Shown here: positions 10,617 to 15,693 of the stretch, piece after piece | Layout: every line of letters begins with the position of its first letter | How positions within the stretch are numbered: the first letter of the stretch is position 1 | Assembly (NCBI GenBank): GCA_038045185.1 | Contig: JBBSYO010000022.1 | Location: forward strand, 164-64,163 | Direction: 5' to 3' | Length of the DNA stretch: 64,000 nt | DNA from: Nanobdellota archaeon | GTDB lineage: Archaea; Nanobdellota; Nanobdellia; Pacearchaeales; GW2011-AR1 | Position numbers and translations under genes: made by a program | The notes under the pieces: model-generated | Seen by the model: only the letters and a program-made list of their open reading frames with translations | What the model was told of the DNA's origin: nothing | Database searches by the model: none

Positions 10617-11029
10617 TTTTGGCGATACGCATTTCTGGCATGGTGAGCATAAATCACGACGCGCAAGAGACAATGTATCGCATGCGATTGCGGCGCAAGT
10701 ATGCAGCGACGCTTATTGCAGACACGCCCCAGAACAGAAAGATGCTTGAAGGTGTGAGAAACTTTATTGCATATGGAGATATTTCCAAAGAGATGCTGCA
10801 AGAACTTCTGGAGAAAAGAGCTGAGCCTCTGAAGGGAAAGAAAATTGATGTTGAACAAGTTATGTCGCAGATTGATAAAAAGAGATTAGATGAACTTGGA
10901 GTAAAGCCGTTCTTTAGGCTGCATCCGCCACGCGGAGGCATTGAGAGCAAGAGGCACTTTGGCACTGGAAGGGGCGTTCTTGGAAATCATAAAGATGCTA
11001 TCGATAAATTAGTGGGGCGGATGTTATGA
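10613..11029 (+). CDS. rpl30: 50S ribosomal protein L30 (uL30)
   Basis: 138 aa; AIRISGMVSINHDAQETMYRMRLRRKYAATL is an L30 ferredoxin-like fold. Confidence 0.83.
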   Translation: MILAIRISGMVSINHDAQETMYRMRLRRKYAATLIADTPQNRKMLEGVRNFIAYGDISKEMLQELLEKRAEPLKGKKIDVEQVMSQIDKKRLDELGVKPFFRLHPPRGGIESKRHFGTGRGVLGNHKDAIDKLVGRML

Positions 11030-11478
11030 AACTGAAAAAAAGACGCAAGTTTTCCCGTTGGAGGGGCTCGCGCACGCATGGACGAGGCAGGAAAAATCGT
11101 ACACGCGGCTCTGGAAATCAAGGCGGTGTAGGCATGTCAGGCACTGGCAAGCGCGGCGACCAGAAGAAAACCCTTGTGATTAATCTTTATGGCAATGACT
11201 ATTTCGGCAAGGACAAAACTTTACGCAGAGGAAGGCGTGCGCGCATACAGAGCATAACTCTGCGGAGCATCTTAGACACGCTTTCCACGATGGTGAAGAA
11301 AGGCACGGCAAAGCAGGAGAAAGGACATTACGTTGTAGATTTGAATAATTACAAGATTATTGGCAATGATAAACTGTCTATCGCACTCAAAATCAGCGCG
11401 CGCGCGGCCACGCAGTCCGCCAAAGATGCTGTTGCGAAGGCTGGCGGGGAGATTAGCACTGTGAATAAAAGTAAGTAG
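11026..11478 (+). CDS. rpl15: 50S ribosomal protein L15 (uL15)
   Basis: 150 aa; Gly/Arg-rich N-terminus RGSRTHGRGRKNRTRGSGNQGG typical of L15. Confidence 0.85.
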   Translation: MKLKKRRKFSRWRGSRTHGRGRKNRTRGSGNQGGVGMSGTGKRGDQKKTLVINLYGNDYFGKDKTLRRGRRARIQSITLRSILDTLSTMVKKGTAKQEKGHYVVDLNNYKIIGNDKLSIALKISARAATQSAKDAVAKAGGEISTVNKSK

Positions 11479-11550
11479 TTGCAAAGAAGAAGAGATGTTG
11501 TGCCACTGCCGTCGTCTGGGTTCAGCGTGTATTTTCGAGGGGATGCGGGC

Positions 11551-11892
11551 TTAATTGAAACCTGTTGGACCGATTGTTCTCAAGATGTGCTTTATCTCTT
11601 CGATGACTTTTTGTTGTTCCTTCTTATCTGACATTCTCACAAATCGTATTAGTAAGTCAGTTAATGCTTCTTGATTAAAAACTCGGATCTTATGAGAATC
11701 TGTAATAAAATAAAACCTAAAACCCTCATATTTCAGTTCTTTTACTACAATTCCTCCCACATGGCCAAGAGACTTTCCTTTAGATGGAGAGTGTTCCAAA
11801 GACCGCAGATGTTCTAGTATTTCAATAGAATTTCCTTTAAATCGCTTATAAATTTCCTCTTTTAAGGAAGGTACAATTTCTACTTTGGCCAT
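11551..11892 (-). CDS. hypothetical small protein; possible RelE/ParE-HigB-like toxin of an inserted two-gene module
   Basis: 113 aa; AT-rich; 13-nt overlap with the upstream small ORF; beta-rich C-terminal segment GFRFYFITDSHKIRVFN loosely resembles RelE/HigB-type toxins. Confidence 0.35.
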   Translation of the reverse strand: MAKVEIVPSLKEEIYKRFKGNSIEILEHLRSLEHSPSKGKSLGHVGGIVVKELKYEGFRFYFITDSHKIRVFNQEALTDLLIRFVRMSDKKEQQKVIEEIKHILRTIGPTGFN

Positions 11893-12080
11893 TTTTTCTT
11901 AGCTTCAGCGATTGCTTCTTCAATAGGTATTGCATCTCCTTCAAATAAGAACTGGCGTAGCTGCTCTTTAACAGCCATTGAATATAGGTGATTGATTATG
12001 TCATCATAAGAATCTCCTTTAGTTCCGAATGATTGGAGCTTCTTTTTTGTACTCTCATTGACTTGTATTGTAGTTGCCAT
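11880..12080 (-). CDS. putative antitoxin-like small protein (ribbon-helix-helix/VapB-DUF217-like)
   Basis: 66 aa; TIQVNESTKKKLQSFGTKGDSYDDIINHL resembles archaeal putative RHH antitoxins; overlaps the downstream ORF. Confidence 0.4.
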   Translation of the reverse strand: MATTIQVNESTKKKLQSFGTKGDSYDDIINHLYSMAVKEQLRQFLFEGDAIPIEEAIAEAKKKWPK

Positions 12081-12109
12081 AGTTTCTATAGTAGCTATAG
12101 TTGCTATAT

Positions 12110-12382
12110 TTATAAAGATTTCGGTGATGCTTTTCTTGCTTTTCTTCTTAAAATCAAAAGTCTCAGTTTTTTATTCCATCTTTTAACATCAAAATAGTTT
12201 GAGAAGTGCATATGCTCGTCTCTCAGCATTTTTCTATCGTCACAACCTCTTACTCCGTCTCTATAATCAAGCCAATCGTTCCAATATGGTTGAGGCTCTA
12301 GTCCTTCTTTAATAAGGATCTCTTTTTTATTTTTAAATCTTGGAGTTTTTCTTCCACTATGTCTTCTTGTTTTGCTATTCAC
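12110..12382 (-). CDS. hypothetical basic protein
   Basis: 90 aa; AT-rich; Arg/Lys-rich; third minus-strand ORF of the insertion between rpl15 and secY. Confidence 0.3.
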   Translation of the reverse strand: MNSKTRRHSGRKTPRFKNKKEILIKEGLEPQPYWNDWLDYRDGVRGCDDRKMLRDEHMHFSNYFDVKRWNKKLRLLILRRKARKASPKSL

Positions 12383-12518
12383 TTATTTAGAAGCCAATTA
12401 AAATATATAATTTTAAGCTGTAACTCTGTAATAGAAATTTTTTACAAGTCAGTCAAAAATGACCAGTTGGTCTTATGCTCCCGCCGAGCCCAACCCTGCA
12501 AAAACCCATTATCAAGAT

Positions 12519-12529
12519 ACGTTTAAAAA
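12519..12529 (+). promoter_or_regulatory. TATA-like box (GTTTAAAAAGT) upstream of secY
   Basis: AT box about 25 nt upstream of the secY ATG at 12551, giving archaeal leaderless spacing. Confidence 0.4.
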
Positions 12530-12550
12530 GTCTTTTTTTGTAAAGCACTG

Positions 12551-13936
12551 ATGGGATTGCAAGAAATTATTTCCTATTTGCCAGAGGTGCGCAAGCCAGT
12601 TGAGAAGAAAGTAAGTTTCAACGTTAAGCTGCGCTGGACGCTCGTTATTATGGGGGCGTTCTTTATTCTTTATAATATTCCCTTGCATGGGCTGAGCAAT
12701 AATGCGCTGGAACGTTTTCGATATTTAGCAGTGCTGTTTGGCACGGACTTTGGAAGCGTCATTAGCTTAGGCATCGGGCCGATTGTTATGTCATCGATTA
12801 TCCTGCAGCTGCTCGTAGGCTCTGGAATTCTGACGATTAACACAAAAACAGAAGAAGGCAAGAAATTGTATCAGGGCTTGCAGAAACTTGGAGTTCTTTT
12901 CTTCATTGTGTTTGAAGCGATGGTGTATGTTCTTATGCAGGGATTGCAGGCAGCTCCGGGCTTTACTGGTATTTTGATTATTCAACTTATACTTGGAGGA
13001 CTGGCGATTATGTTCATGGACGAGGTTGTTAGCAAGTGGGGATTTGGTTCAGGCGTGTCGCTCTTCATCGTTGCAGGTGTTGCATTGAATCTGTTCACAG
13101 GACTGTTCCAGTTTATTGGTCCTACTGGAACCAGCTGCCTCACTGATTTTGGAACAACAGCGTGCACAGGCAAGGTGCTGGTCGTGCTACAATCAATTAT
13201 TAACGGGGCTCCGCGCGAGGCACTTTTAGCATTCGCGATTATTGCGATTACTGCTGCTCTTTTCTTAGGCATTGTATGGGCGCAGAGTTTGAAGATTGAA
13301 CTGCCACTTAGCTTTGATCGTCTGCGAGGGCATATGGTAAAGTGGCCGTTGCCGCTATTCTATGCTTCGAACATTCCAGTTATCCTGGTTGCGGCGCTTG
13401 TTGCAAATCTGCAGCTGTTTGCAGGCCTGATTGAAGGATGGTTGGGTCGTGCTACGTTCCTCGGTACTTTTTCCAATGGAGTTCCTGTTGCAGGATTTGC
13501 GTACTGGATTGGAAGCACAGATTTGGTAACCTCTGTAATTACAGGAAGCCTGCAGACATCGCATATTTTTCAGGCGGTAACGCACCTCGTGTTCTACATT
13601 TTGCTGTCTATTATGTTCTCGGTATTTTGGGTTAAGACTGCAGGTATGGATGCCGCAAGCATTGCGCGCAATATCATGGCCTCTGGATTGCAGATTCCTG
13701 GATTCAGAAAAGACGAGCGCGTGCTTGAGAGCATTTTAAGCAGATATGTGATGCCATTAACCATTATGGGGGGCATCGCTGTCGGGGCGCTTGCCGCGAT
13801 TGCAGACTTGTTCGGAGTTTTGACCTCTGGAACATCACTCTTGCTTGCTATTACCATAACTTACCAATTGTTCCAGAATATCGCGCAGCAGCATGCGGTC
13901 GACATGCATCCTGCGCTGCGCAAATTCGTCGGATAA
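12551..13936 (+). CDS. secY: preprotein translocase subunit SecY
   Basis: 461 aa; 10-TM profile and SecY signature regions; canonical position after rpl15. Confidence 0.93.
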   Translation: MGLQEIISYLPEVRKPVEKKVSFNVKLRWTLVIMGAFFILYNIPLHGLSNNALERFRYLAVLFGTDFGSVISLGIGPIVMSSIILQLLVGSGILTINTKTEEGKKLYQGLQKLGVLFFIVFEAMVYVLMQGLQAAPGFTGILIIQLILGGLAIMFMDEVVSKWGFGSGVSLFIVAGVALNLFTGLFQFIGPTGTSCLTDFGTTACTGKVLVVLQSIINGAPREALLAFAIIAITAALFLGIVWAQSLKIELPLSFDRLRGHMVKWPLPLFYASNIPVILVAALVANLQLFAGLIEGWLGRATFLGTFSNGVPVAGFAYWIGSTDLVTSVITGSLQTSHIFQAVTHLVFYILLSIMFSVFWVKTAGMDAASIARNIMASGLQIPGFRKDERVLESILSRYVMPLTIMGGIAVGALAAIADLFGVLTSGTSLLLAITITYQLFQNIAQQHAVDMHPALRKFVG

Positions 13937-13987: not shown

Positions 13988-14389
13988 ATGCCTCTTACCA
14001 CTCTTGTAAACGCGTATCCGCTCGCTAGTGTCGTCACGATTTCAGCACTTGTTTCATTCTTTATTTCATTAGTAAACTATTTTGTACTGGACAAGGAGCG
14101 TATGCGCGAGCTTAAGGAAAAGCAGAAATCGCTTCAAAGCGAGATAAAAAACCAGCCTGATTCCCAGAAAAAGATGGAGCTAACCAACCAGATGCTCAAG
14201 CACAGCATGGAAACCATGAAGCACTCCATGAAGCCTGCGCTAATAACGATGATTCCTCTTTTGATTATATTCTGGTTTATCAAGGGAATGTTTGAGACGA
14301 CTTCGCTTGCAGGAAGCTGGATATGGTACTACATTGGGAGTGCTTTGGCATTTAGTCTGGTCTTCAGAAAACTTTTTAAACTGCCTTAA
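13988..14389 (+). CDS. DUF106/EMC3-Oxa1-like membrane insertase family protein
   Basis: 133 aa; TM-coiled coil-TM architecture resembles archaeal DUF106 (YidC/EMC3-like) proteins, which are usually found near secY. Confidence 0.55.
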   Translation: MPLTTLVNAYPLASVVTISALVSFFISLVNYFVLDKERMRELKEKQKSLQSEIKNQPDSQKKMELTNQMLKHSMETMKHSMKPALITMIPLLIIFWFIKGMFETTSLAGSWIWYYIGSALAFSLVFRKLFKLP

Positions 14390-14402
14390 GTGCTTTGCGT
14401 TC

Positions 14403-14801
14403 ATGGAACAGGAATTATTTGCGCGCGCGCAAATCGCTTATCAGCAAGCCCAAGCGCATGAGGAACGGCTCGGATTTATCAATCAGCAGATTCAGGAAAT
14501 GGAAGAATTTAATTCTGGCTTGAAACAACTCGCGCATAACAAGCAAGGAGAGATTTTAGCATCTTTAGGAAAGGGCGTTTTTGTAAAGACTAAAAGAATT
14601 GAGCAGGATTTTTTTGTTGATGTTGGATCACAGGTGTTCGTCAAAAGAAATCTTTCTGACATACAAATGACACTTGGCGAGCAAATTAATCGTCTTACCG
14701 AATTGCGAGAAGAAATAAAAGAAGAACTGGCTGACTTAAAGCAGGATCTGAGCGAGATGATGGAGTCAGTTGAACCTGTTCAGAAGCACAAAACTATTTA
14801 A
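14403..14801 (+). CDS. prefoldin subunit (alpha-like)
   Basis: 132 aa from an internal ATG; coiled coils flank the beta-hairpin region ASLGKGVFVKTKRIEQDFFVDVGSQVFVKRNL, which matches the prefoldin signature. Confidence 0.55.
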   Translation: MEQELFARAQIAYQQAQAHEERLGFINQQIQEMEEFNSGLKQLAHNKQGEILASLGKGVFVKTKRIEQDFFVDVGSQVFVKRNLSDIQMTLGEQINRLTELREEIKEELADLKQDLSEMMESVEPVQKHKTI

Positions 14802-14832
14802 GCGTCTGAAGGGTAAATCGATTAAGTGCAAT

Positions 14833-15693
14833 ATGTTAGAGATGATTATCGGTCCAAAAAAGGCTGAACGACGACCGTGGGAAATGTTCTTCATTGGACT
14901 GTTCTATGCCAGTGCTTCAATATTGCTTGTTAATTGGATTTTTTCCCGTGATGCAGTATTGATGAAATATTCTGGTGTGCTTGTTGTCACTTTTACTGTG
15001 ATGTTCTCCCTGCCTTTCGTATATTATCTAATCAAGCTTGAGGAAAAGAAAGCGGTTTCTAATTTGGGCGCTTTCCCATTGCTCAAAGAACACCGAAAGG
15101 CACTCTGGGCTTTCCTCTGGCTTTTTGTTGGTTTCGTAGTAGCTTACTCGTTCTGGTATATACTTTTGCCGACGACGCAGAGCTTCAAGGCCCAAGTTGA
15201 GACGTATTGCGCGATTAATCGACCGGCAGAATACGATGGCTGCTTAGCTCAATACGGGGGAGCTAAAGGCGTGCAGCAGACGGCTTTTGCTGGCAACAAG
15301 GAACGGCTTTTCCTTATTTTTGCGAACAATATTTATGTGCTTATATTTACAATAGTGTTCTCCTTGTTATTTGGGGCGGGAGCTATCTTTATCTTAGCAT
15401 GGAACGCGAGCGTCATAGCGGCAGCCATAAGCATTTTTACGCGGTCGAGTCTTGCGGAGTTGCCGATAGGGCTCGTGAGGTATATGATTCACGGACTGCC
15501 TGAAATAGCAGCATACTTTATTGCAGCGATGGCAGGAGGAATTATTTCAGTAGCAGTTATACGCCATGAAGCTACGTCTGACCGATTCTGGAATATTCTG
15601 CAGGACTCGCTTAATCTTATTATCGCGGCGGTACTTGTGCTTTTCCTTGCTGCGCTGATGGAAGTGTTTCTGACGCCGCTGCTCTTTAATTGA
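14833..15693 (+). CDS. SpoIIM/DUF95-like integral membrane protein
   Basis: about 287 aa from the ATG at 14833; multiple TM helices; C-terminal HGLPEIAAYFIAAMAGG motif typical of the COG1300 family. Confidence 0.45.
   Translation: MLEMIIGPKKAERRPWEMFFIGLFYASASILLVNWIFSRDAVLMKYSGVLVVTFTVMFSLPFVYYLIKLEEKKAVSNLGAFPLLKEHRKALWAFLWLFVGFVVAYSFWYILLPTTQSFKAQVETYCAINRPAEYDGCLAQYGGAKGVQQTAFAGNKERLFLIFANNIYVLIFTIVFSLLFGAGAIFILAWNASVIAAAISIFTRSSLAELPIGLVRYMIHGLPEIAAYFIAAMAGGIISVAVIRHEATSDRFWNILQDSLNLIIAAVLVLFLAALMEVFLTPLLFN

Follow-up and report, generated by a model that had tools for sequence, protein, structure and literature searches.

A DUF7557/RelE-ParE-type toxin-antitoxin cassette in the rpl15-secY spacer of a Nanobdellota archaeon

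COG1753 is an archaea-specific ribbon-helix-helix (RHH) antitoxin whose partners are PIN toxins and, among methanogens, also RelE-like toxins, as in the predicted pair MA0375-MA0376 (Makarova et al. 2009, PMC2701414). The pairs of COG1753 with RelE-like toxins represent the closest described system to the one presented here, a type II toxin-antitoxin (TA) module made of two overlapping genes, encoding proteins of 66 and 113 aa, which is located between rpl15 and secY in a stretch of 64,000 nucleotides (the window, from here on) of contig JBBSYO010000022.1 from a Nanobdellota archaeon. This module constitutes a new family within the kind that combines an RHH-type antitoxin with a RelE/ParE toxin. 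Taking all the data into account, it is probable that the rpl15-secY spacer has gained about 0.9 kb of foreign AT-rich DNA organized as two abutting minus-strand mini-cassettes: an autoregulated TA operon, with a DUF7557 antitoxin and a RelE/ParE-type toxin, and a single gene of 90 codons, orf90.

With the COG1753 systems, the window pair shares its archaeal setting and the location of a small RHH-like antitoxin gene upstream of that of a RelE-superfamily toxin. However, the window antitoxin stays under the cut-off of PF02697 and belongs to DUF7557, the window toxin itself is matched by no RelE/ParE model, and the range of the family is DPANN instead of methanogens. The best structural superposition is that with RelE-RelB from P. 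horikoshii (PHS013/PHS014, PDB 1WMI), also a two-gene operon in which the antitoxin gene lies upstream of, and overlaps with, that of a small archaeal toxin with beta1, N-terminal helices, and an antiparallel sheet. Contrary to this archaeal RelE (aRelE), the window toxin is 23 residues longer, has no detectable sequence similarity with it, and presents two helices with the invariant residues K90 and Q93 in the place of the C-terminal strand and tail. The antitoxins differ as well, since aRelB is a non-RHH wrapping peptide and that of the window is DUF7557/RHH-like.

ParD-ParE systems, such as ParDE from P. aeruginosa (6XRW) and ParDE2 from M. tuberculosis (8C26), likewise put together an RHH-like antitoxin and a RelE/ParE-fold toxin, even though the C-terminal region important for ParE toxicity is replaced in the window toxin, and the setting here is archaeal, with an apparently leaderless promoter. 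The operators of MetJ (met boxes) and Arc/CopG consist of tandem short palindromes, cooperatively bound by RHH dimers and overlapping the core promoter, whereas the putative boxes of the window, CTATAG with a 9-bp period, are placed after an archaeal TATA box and before a leaderless start. Finally, a TA-derived MNT-HEPN gene of DPANN archaea (cls.004259, NEQ050) is unusually conserved and often found in housekeeping neighbourhoods (Makarova, Wolf, Koonin 2019, PMC6393860). The protein families are other ones in this case and, contrary to the MNT-HEPN gene, which is fused and has a fairly stable context, the window pair is unfused and positionally mobile.

This does not overturn the current understanding. 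What it defines is a previously unannotated family of RelE/ParE-class toxins, with a DUF7557 antitoxin and a remarkably conserved promoter-operator. With about 1,700 sequence clusters, the family abounds in DPANN archaea, in whose small genomes 'dark matter' prevails. DUF7557, of which we found no mention in the papers searched, thereby gains a testable function, and the TA-associated orf90 family represents a small new lead. In addition, rpl15-secY, among the most conserved archaeal gene junctions, turns out to be a recurrent TA/defence hotspot in this clade, which is useful for the annotation of DPANN genomes, for finding further mobile cassettes, and for grasping how selfish or defensive genes find room in the streamlined genomes of symbionts. 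The C-terminal helical extension, the conserved operator, the strong purifying selection, the hotspot context, and the association of orf90 with TA pairs are the noteworthy aspects.

The toxin-antitoxin pair, its family and its promoter

The spacer between rpl15 and secY is 1,072 nt long, AT-rich, and carries three open reading frames (ORFs) on the minus strand. These had been proposed from the letters of the window alone as three small genes of 90, 66 and 113 aa in an AT-rich segment of 1.07 kb, and they are confirmed at the positions collected in Table 1. The comparison of composition with the flanks that had been suggested gives clearly lower values for the segment: GC content is 0.32-0.37 across 11450-12650, against 0.44-0.51 in the flanks, and GC content at third codon positions (GC3) is 0.27 for the 113-aa ORF, 0.31 for the 66-aa ORF, and 0.24 for orf90, compared to 0.55 for L15 and 0.50 for SecY. 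Homologous proteins amount to 1,694 clusters at 90% identity for the 113-aa protein, 66 for the 66-aa protein, and 19 for the 90-aa protein, and proteins identical to all three (AABX12_02335, AABX12_02340, and AABX12_02345) are found in a metagenome-assembled genome deposited at NCBI as 'Nanoarchaeota archaeon'. All three ORFs are real genes. The host is a tiny groundwater archaeon, a DPANN member of the Woese-/Pacearchaeota type.

The 13-nt overlap between the 66-aa and the 113-aa ORFs, which the original prediction read as typical TA coupling, is present, and the pairing is kept far beyond this genome. Six loci fetched by exact protein look-up have, each time, a DUF7557 gene directly upstream of the toxin gene with the same overlap, and each neighbourhood is a different one (thymidylate kinase, the end of the S12/S7 operon, DisA, an MNT-HepT pair, SerRS plus a helicase, and an NTP-transferase). 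Together with 80 further loci from a scan of metagenomes, there are 86 toxin-homologue loci. In each of the 79 that have enough upstream DNA, an antitoxin homologue is directly upstream and both genes are intact; 43 of them show the overlap of 13 nt and the other 36 one of 19 nt. The overlap of 13 nt implies translational coupling of antitoxin and toxin. After clustering of the flanking ORFs, 61 distinct contexts can be distinguished among 83 loci, that of the window being unique. The TA pair is a mobile cassette.

The toxin family is compact, since its approximately 1,700 clusters at 90% identity collapse to few at 50%, a level at which there are 132 representatives, many of them being fragments. 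The 120 listed homologues come from Woese-, Pace- and Nanoarchaeota and have nearly all 112-113 aa (range 105-115); across these database matches and the 86 loci, amino-acid identity is 58-84%. Compared to most homologues, the window copy shows a proportion of synonymous differences (pS) of 0.69-0.82, which means saturation, and a proportion of nonsynonymous differences (pN) of 0.08-0.25. Considering all comparisons, pN is 0.03-0.25 versus a pS of 0.5-0.8, and the ratio of nonsynonymous to synonymous substitution rates (dN/dS) is 0.04-0.10 where dS is computable. Since synonymous sites are saturated and nonsynonymous differences few, the amino-acid conservation of the family reflects long-term purifying selection on both genes. 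The saturated synonymous sites rule out a recent sweep as the source of the high amino-acid identity, and the homologue counts together with the purifying selection rule out chance ORFs in AT-rich DNA.

The 66-aa protein had been described as RHH/VapB-like, and this likeness is supported. It matches DUF7557 (PF24434) with 33.4 bits over residues 3-41, above the cut-off of 25, and PF24434 is precomputed on most of its homologues; with PF02697 (VapB_antitox, COG1753, DUF217) it gives 20.9 bits over residues 4-62 (E-value 6.4e-4), below the cut-off of 27.9, and PF02697 is precomputed on two homologues, P0330 and P0333. In view of these matches, its relation to PF02697/COG1753 is probably distant. 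It also matches weakly, below cut-off, the RHH N-terminal domain of BfmA/BtgA, and a homologue is labelled 'predicted CopG family antitoxin' by one database source, while searches against PDB sequences gave nothing significant. The AlphaFold2 (AF2) model, with a predicted local distance difference test (pLDDT) score of 86.6, presents an extended segment in residues 1-8 (strand TTIQV, with the invariant T4 and I5), a helix in 9-16, a turn at the invariant G19, and two more helices in 25-46 and 53-63. According to this model, an RHH topology with an additional C-terminal helix is probable.

As for the 113-aa protein, an AF2 model was built from 42 homologues (pLDDT 88.8; predicted template modelling score, pTM, 0.79). 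The model comprises beta1 in residues 3-6, a long helical segment in 8-33, strands in 40-45, 48-55, 58-64 and 68-72, and, at the C-terminus, two helices in 74-87 and 90-107, so that the RelE/ParE core fold, that is, beta1, a helical hairpin, and a 3-4-stranded antiparallel sheet, is present in it. The top Foldseek matches in the PDB were ParE (6xrw_C, probability 0.98), RelE1 from M. tuberculosis (9g12, 0.97), and aRelE (1wmi, 0.99), followed lower in the list by Cami1, ParE2, HigB1, RelE2, and HigB2. The superposition with aRelE has a target-normalised template modelling (TM) score of 0.68 and a root mean square deviation (rmsd) of 2.2 A over 77 columns. A bridge to known families is also provided by the divergent members of the toxin family, which were obtained by exhaustive profile search, aligned, and individually scanned against Pfam: 5 out of 27 match PF05016 (ParE_toxin), among them P0267, with 37.2 bits for a cut-off of 23 and residues 5-75 covering profile positions 1-82 of 89; three others are just under the threshold, and weak Gp49/HigB and ParE-like matches appear too. 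The likeness to RelE/HigB that had been proposed for this protein is sustained by the Foldseek matches and the PF05016 bridge, whereas the beta-rich end attributed to it is not, the sheet being in residues 40-72 and the C-terminus being helical. From this model, the window toxin can be considered a divergent RelE/ParE-fold protein. On the basis of the AF2 and Foldseek results and of the PF05016 bridge, its first ~75 residues are the divergent core and its last ~40 a family-specific two-helix extension.

The residues conserved throughout the toxin family are G39, E52, R59, Y61, F84, K90, Q93, and I97. In RelE from E. coli, the catalytic residues are K52, K54, R61, R81, and Y87. Setting the hairpins in register manually, K54 and R59 of the window toxin would correspond to residues K54 and R61 in the E. 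coli protein. E52 and Y61 would share one face of the sheet, and R86, K90 and Q93 from the C-terminal helices could replace R81 and Y87 of RelE. A candidate active site would then be formed by E52, K54, R59 and Y61, on the exposed face of the sheet, plus R86, K90 and Q93 from the C-terminal helices.

The promoter region of the pair reads CTTTATAAATATAGCAACTATAGCTACTATAGAAACTATGG on the minus strand, from 12117 down to 12077, upstream of the antitoxin ATG. Since the TATA box starts about 36 nt before this ATG, the mRNA would be leaderless or nearly so. Between both elements there is a putative operator with four boxes: ATATAG (12104-12109), CTATAG (12095-12100), CTATAG (12086-12091), and CTATGG (12077-12082), the last of which holds the ATG itself. 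The motif CTATAGNNNCTATAG, with one mismatch allowed, occurs three times in the 64 kb, all of them in 12077-12109, versus 0.08 expected. The same succession of a TATA box, two or three CTATAG boxes with a 9-bp period, and the ATG is found in nearly all homologous loci, whatever their context. Two or more exact CTATAG boxes lie within the 60 nt upstream in 60 of 85 loci (0.034 expected), and the distance from box to box is exactly 9 in 123 instances; a few rows of this count are affected by short contigs. By analogy, classical type II autoregulation would be the most economical reading of a promoter combining a TATA box and palindromes.

The rpl15-secY junction and orf90

Starting from SecY, 80 relatives at species level were obtained among GTDB genomes, their SecY identities being 62-92%, and in none of them are the toxin, the antitoxin, or orf90 found near secY. 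The gap between L15 and secY is 19-45 nt in the six closest relatives (SecY 72-92%). The junction of the nearest one, L026, is N-masked; its gap length and the next five relatives were used here, and no base-level boundaries are given. This L026 belongs to the sister assembly CAYRXU01, which has a contiguous L15-secY junction and carries a copy of the cassette elsewhere (L006), adjoining the DisA/DAC genes and with 74% DNA identity to that of the window. A copy from Pacearchaeota CG10 (L008) has 82.6% DNA identity. At the protein level, the window pair has an identity of 84% (toxin) and 92% (antitoxin) with the CG10 pair, and of 76% and 85% with that of the sister, whereas for SecY the identity is 92% with the sister and does not exceed 79% with any other relative. 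The empty junction in the relatives, this incongruence between the pair and SecY, and the contrast in GC3 lead to a lineage-specific lateral acquisition, in agreement with the recently integrated module of the original prediction. Solely the particular insertion of the window, and not the family, looks recent. An identical L15 is present in 19 contigs, including Hainich ('Hain_') metagenome assemblies, and the insertion is found in the 8 out of 8 that were shown; there is no empty rpl15-secY site among these strain variants.

The CG10 copy contains the closest non-identical toxin homologue with genome context, P0015 (L008, 4001-4318), which has 105 aa and a divergent C-terminal tail (...DESDYSLP). 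Its sequence suggests a frameshifted or truncated toxin, beside an intact antitoxin and adjoining an MNT-HepT pair.

The ideas of a universally conserved junction and of an unusual location go too far for this clade. In 67 relatives, the DNA obtained contains both genes, and the L15-secY gap is of up to 150 nt in 36, of 150-400 nt in 6, and of 447-2,610 nt in 25, these last ones being species that carry insertions. The contents of the gaps, as derived from Pfam scans of their ORFs, are included in Table 1; 10 of these 25 expanded gaps have, immediately before secY, an ORF similar to the membrane protein of about 160 aa from L043. In related Woese-/Pacearchaeota, this junction is a hotspot where TA and defence cassettes insert repeatedly. 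Of 78 relatives, 59 have the TTTAAAAA motif upstream of secY, with or without insertion and most often at -29/-30 (range -28 to -43), and relatives without this TATA box have mostly gaps of 0-20 nt and no insertion, L050 being the sole clear exception. Because of its own conserved TATA box, secY represents a separate leaderless transcription unit and not the tail of the ribosomal operon, which likely makes the spacer a recurrent landing site. Since the inserts lie upstream of this TATA box, the insertion would be tolerated with both transcription units intact.

Regarding the vehicle of the cassette, no toxin homologue was found in 2.9 million viral contigs of IMG/VR, which rules out carriage by known viruses, and Foldseek comparison of the toxin model with viral structures (BFVD) gave no meaningful matches. 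There is no recombinase ORF in the rpl15-secY spacer, and the flanking direct and inverted repeats do not go further than matches of 10-14 nt at chance level.

Two further locations of the cassette deserve mention. At eight loci (L124, L125, L128-L130, L142, L161, and L164), a convergent tRNA gene has its 3' end 3-13 nt beyond the stop codon of the toxin; the tRNA is Val(TAC) at most of them, Val(CAC) at one, and Gln(TTG) at another. Some of the eight may be mutually orthologous, and the neighbourhood of tRNAs may be, suggestively only, another preferred insertion site. In L004/L005 (homologue P0037), the cassette converges on the end of rpsG (S7), with an overlap of 8 nt, in the S12/S7 operon, being a second case of a cassette antisense at the end of a ribosomal-protein operon.

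The third gene of the spacer, orf90, encodes a small basic protein with a basic tail and two motifs invariant in its 19 homologues, K-x-RRHSGR-x-x-P and EP..W..W.D.RDG.R, with no match in Pfam, NCBIfam, PADLOC, PHROGs or PDB. The original prediction included it in the toxin/antitoxin-like insertion. However, its homologues are absent from all of the 86 census loci, so that the TA pair is independent of it, and it has a putative promoter of its own, with a TATA-like ATTATATAT that starts 29 nt before the GTG. This arrangement is shared by its homologues, where a AAGTTnnnnCTTA palindrome is followed by a TATA box approximately 29 nt before the start, the upstream element being conserved in 5 of 6 contexts. 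Nevertheless, orf90 recurs beside TA pairs, in 5 out of 6 contexts and of differing types. In L188/L189, whose context is unrelated to that of the window, a homologue of 72% identity is followed by DUF7557 and a toxin of 62% identity, with the junction found in the window, where the TAA stop codon of orf90 (12110-12112) sits inside the TATA box of the TA cassette; in L190 the homologue is followed by a 64-aa gene and an 85-aa ParE_toxin gene; in L014 it is followed by an MNT-HepT pair; and in L016 it abuts a HEPN plus MNT pair. L186 is the sole context without a TA neighbour. From these arrangements, orf90 can be read as an independent small cassette, probably self-regulated, that is found together with TA cassettes. 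It escapes most gene callers, and no gene is called there in the L018-L025 contigs.

Proposed mechanism and alternative explanations

From these features we infer operator binding, RNase activity, toxicity and neutralisation, which would be articulated as follows. The TATA box of the first cassette (11551-12116) would drive a leaderless bicistronic mRNA, and RHH-like dimers of the antitoxin, alone or with the toxin, would bind to the CTATAG palindromes spaced by 9 bp, leading to the self-repression of the operon. The C-terminal helix of the antitoxin would wrap and neutralise the toxin, whose translation would be coupled through the overlap. Upon the loss of the labile antitoxin, the free toxin would, most likely by analogy with aRelE, cleave ribosome-bound mRNA and arrest translation. 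The second cassette (12110-12425) consists of orf90, preceded by a palindrome and a TATA box of its own and with its stop codon located within the TATA box of the first one. The insertion of both would be tolerated because the TATA box of secY stays intact 29 nt upstream of its ATG.

Several results weigh against this interpretation. The window toxin has no match in Pfam, NCBIfam, PADLOC or PHROGs, and for PF05016, PF05973 and PF15781 there was none at an E-value of up to 10, and thus none reaching the Pfam gathering threshold. Sequence and profile searches with the toxin against PDB sequences gave nothing significant, the hhalign comparison of the toxin alignment with the verified aRelE sequence was null, and the E-values of its Foldseek matches are 0.1-1, those with ParE, RelE and aRelE being 0.1-0.2, so that membership in RelE/ParE relies on the fold probability and on the transitive sequence bridge. 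Moreover, since two helices replace the canonical C-terminal segment of RelE/ParE toxins, the catalytic residues cannot be mapped with confidence. In the case of the antitoxin, the Foldseek search of the monomer against the PDB was not significant, the best match being SeqA-N (1xrx, probability 0.69), with ParD2 at rank 11. Finally, conservation with saturated synonymous sites is unusual for a selfish TA pair and could indicate a role beneficial to the host.

That last point gives rise to a different explanation, in which the pair would be a domesticated regulator, consisting of a RelE-like ribosome-binding factor and its inhibitor, that selection maintains across Woese-/Pacearchaeota and that throttles translation, for example in the dormancy of host-dependent cells. 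Both genes are intact in the 79 loci, the amino-acid identity and the low dN/dS go along with saturated synonymous sites, the clusters are few at 50% identity despite their number at 90%, the cassette is often beside housekeeping genes (S7/S12, SerRS, thymidylate kinase), and the conserved MNT-HEPN gene of DPANN archaea, in its housekeeping context, would be a precedent (PMC6393860). We consider it quite unlikely, though, given the 61 contexts among 83 loci, the lack of the pair at the junction in 80 out of 80 relatives, the incongruence of toxin similarity with the SecY phylogeny, a cassette composition foreign to the host genome, and the copy that adjoins an MNT-HepT pair. The main mechanistic alternative to mRNA cleavage would be a ParE-like topoisomerase target, the toxin being a gyrase/topoisomerase poison instead of a ribosome-dependent mRNA endonuclease of the RelE type. 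This is the direction in which the best Foldseek match, ParE 6xrw_C, would point, together with the several ParE chains scoring alongside RelE, the name ParE_toxin of the Pfam family reached via the divergent members, and the ParDE-like arrangement of an RHH antitoxin plus a toxin. It seems rather improbable, however: the best TM-score and rmsd are those of the archaeal RelE 1wmi, the strictly conserved residues of the sheet (E52, R59, Y61) and of the helices (K90, Q93) resemble an enzyme site, PF05016 spans RelE and ParE alike, and, to our knowledge, the archaeal members studied so far are of the RelE type. No gyrase or topoisomerase gene is found in the 64-kb window either, weak as this evidence is.

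The mixture of genes that occupies the spacer in related species (HEPN-MNT, MNT-HepT, MazEF, VapC, Fic, a reverse transcriptase, and a dCTP-deaminase-like gene) is typical of defence islands, and would fit a cassette that is primarily an antiviral abortive-infection system. We find this very unlikely, since none of the three proteins has a PADLOC match, no homologue appears in the viral contigs, and nothing in these data ties the pair to infection, even though TA and defence roles are not mutually exclusive. A single three-component system, with orf90 as regulator or accessory as in paaR2-paaA2-parE2 or omega-epsilon-zeta, would account for the recurrence of the same genes, order and junction in the unrelated context of L188/L189, and for the TA neighbours of orf90 in 5 of 6 contexts, including a ParE_toxin pair, MNT-HepT, and HEPN plus MNT. 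It is nonetheless unlikely when considering that 0 of the 86 census toxin loci carry an orf90 homologue, that orf90 has its own conserved palindrome and TATA box, that it associates with unrelated TA types, and that one homologue has no TA neighbour at all. A broader proposal would see in the pair an anciently maintained and strongly selected translation-control/abortive-infection module of Woese-/Pacearchaeota, for which the spacer is a preferred landing pad where, in antisense, read-through of the operon couples its expression to growth rate, orf90 being a DNA-binding accessory that travels with several TA types; little probability is given to it. The two laterally acquired mini-cassettes, with type II autoregulation of the first one, are the explanation that we prefer.

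Features of the locus and its surroundings

The ribosomal-protein operon upstream of the insertion has the order S8, L6, L32e, L19e, L18, S5, L30 and L15 on the plus strand. An Rfam scan of the spacer gave no match, and no strong T-run terminator was found in 11479-11550 by a bacterial-type promoter/terminator scan, which is uninformative for an archaeon. Since the cassette converges on rpl15, with a spacer of 72 nt and no obvious terminator, read-through antisense to the TA genes is possible. The collision of transcription that had been anticipated for this segment is likewise possible from the geometry, as is the production of an antisense RNA to toxin and antitoxin by read-through of the ribosomal operon.

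Table 1. Features of the rpl15-secY locus in the window and contents of expanded L15-secY gaps in related species
Feature	Position	Strand	Evidence
rpl15 (uL15), left flank, closing the upstream ribosomal-protein operon	11026-11478	+	ORF; Pfam Ribosomal_L27A on identical protein
Spacer between convergent stops of rpl15 and toxin gene, 72 nt	11479-11550	.	Sequence; host-like GC
Toxin gene, 113 aa	11551-11892	-	ORF; AF2 model; Foldseek; family bridge to PF05016
Overlap of antitoxin stop and toxin start, 13 nt (ATGGCCAAAGTAG)	11880-11892	-	Sequence; overlap kept in homologous loci
Antitoxin gene, 66 aa	11880-12080	-	ORF; PF24434 match; AF2 model
Putative operator, four boxes at 9-bp spacing, between TATA and ATG	12077-12109	-	Repeat family; motif count; conserved in homologous loci
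TATA box of the TA cassette, TTTATAAA	12109-12116	-	Sequence; starts 36 nt upstream of antitoxin ATG; TATA conserved across loci
orf90, 90 aa, GTG start	12110-12382	-	ORF; conserved homologues
Putative orf90 promoter: imperfect palindrome AGTTACAGCTTA (12414-12425), then TATA-like ATTATATAT (12403-12411)	12403-12425	-	
secY TATA box, TTTAAAAA	12522-12529	+	29 nt upstream of secY ATG; retained downstream of insertion
secY, right flank	12551-13936	+	ORF; Pfam SecY on identical protein; relatives
MazF/MazE	L036 and L102 gaps		Pfam
MNT-HepT	L040 gap		Pfam
HEPN-MNT	L056 and L079 gaps		Pfam
PIN VapC with small upstream partner	L081 gap		Pfam
Fic	L045 gap		Pfam
Reverse transcriptase	L078 gap		Pfam
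dCTP-deaminase-like protein	L058 gap		Pfam
AsnC-type regulator	L102 gap		Pfam
Membrane protein of ~160 aa, VIT1-family match	L043 gap		Pfam

On the 3' side of secY, the adenylate kinase gene usual in archaea is absent, and the order of genes in 13988-15693 is that of an EMC3/TMCO1 (DUF106, YidC-like) membrane protein, prefoldin, and a SpoIIM-family membrane protein. Further downstream, the majority of the large ORFs in 22103-50683 belong to glycosylation and cell-envelope pathways, encoding STT3/AglB, two PMT-type mannosyltransferases, a glycosyltransferase, a polysaccharide flippase, and a RmlD/NTP-transferase fusion; an asparagine synthase is also encoded in this region.

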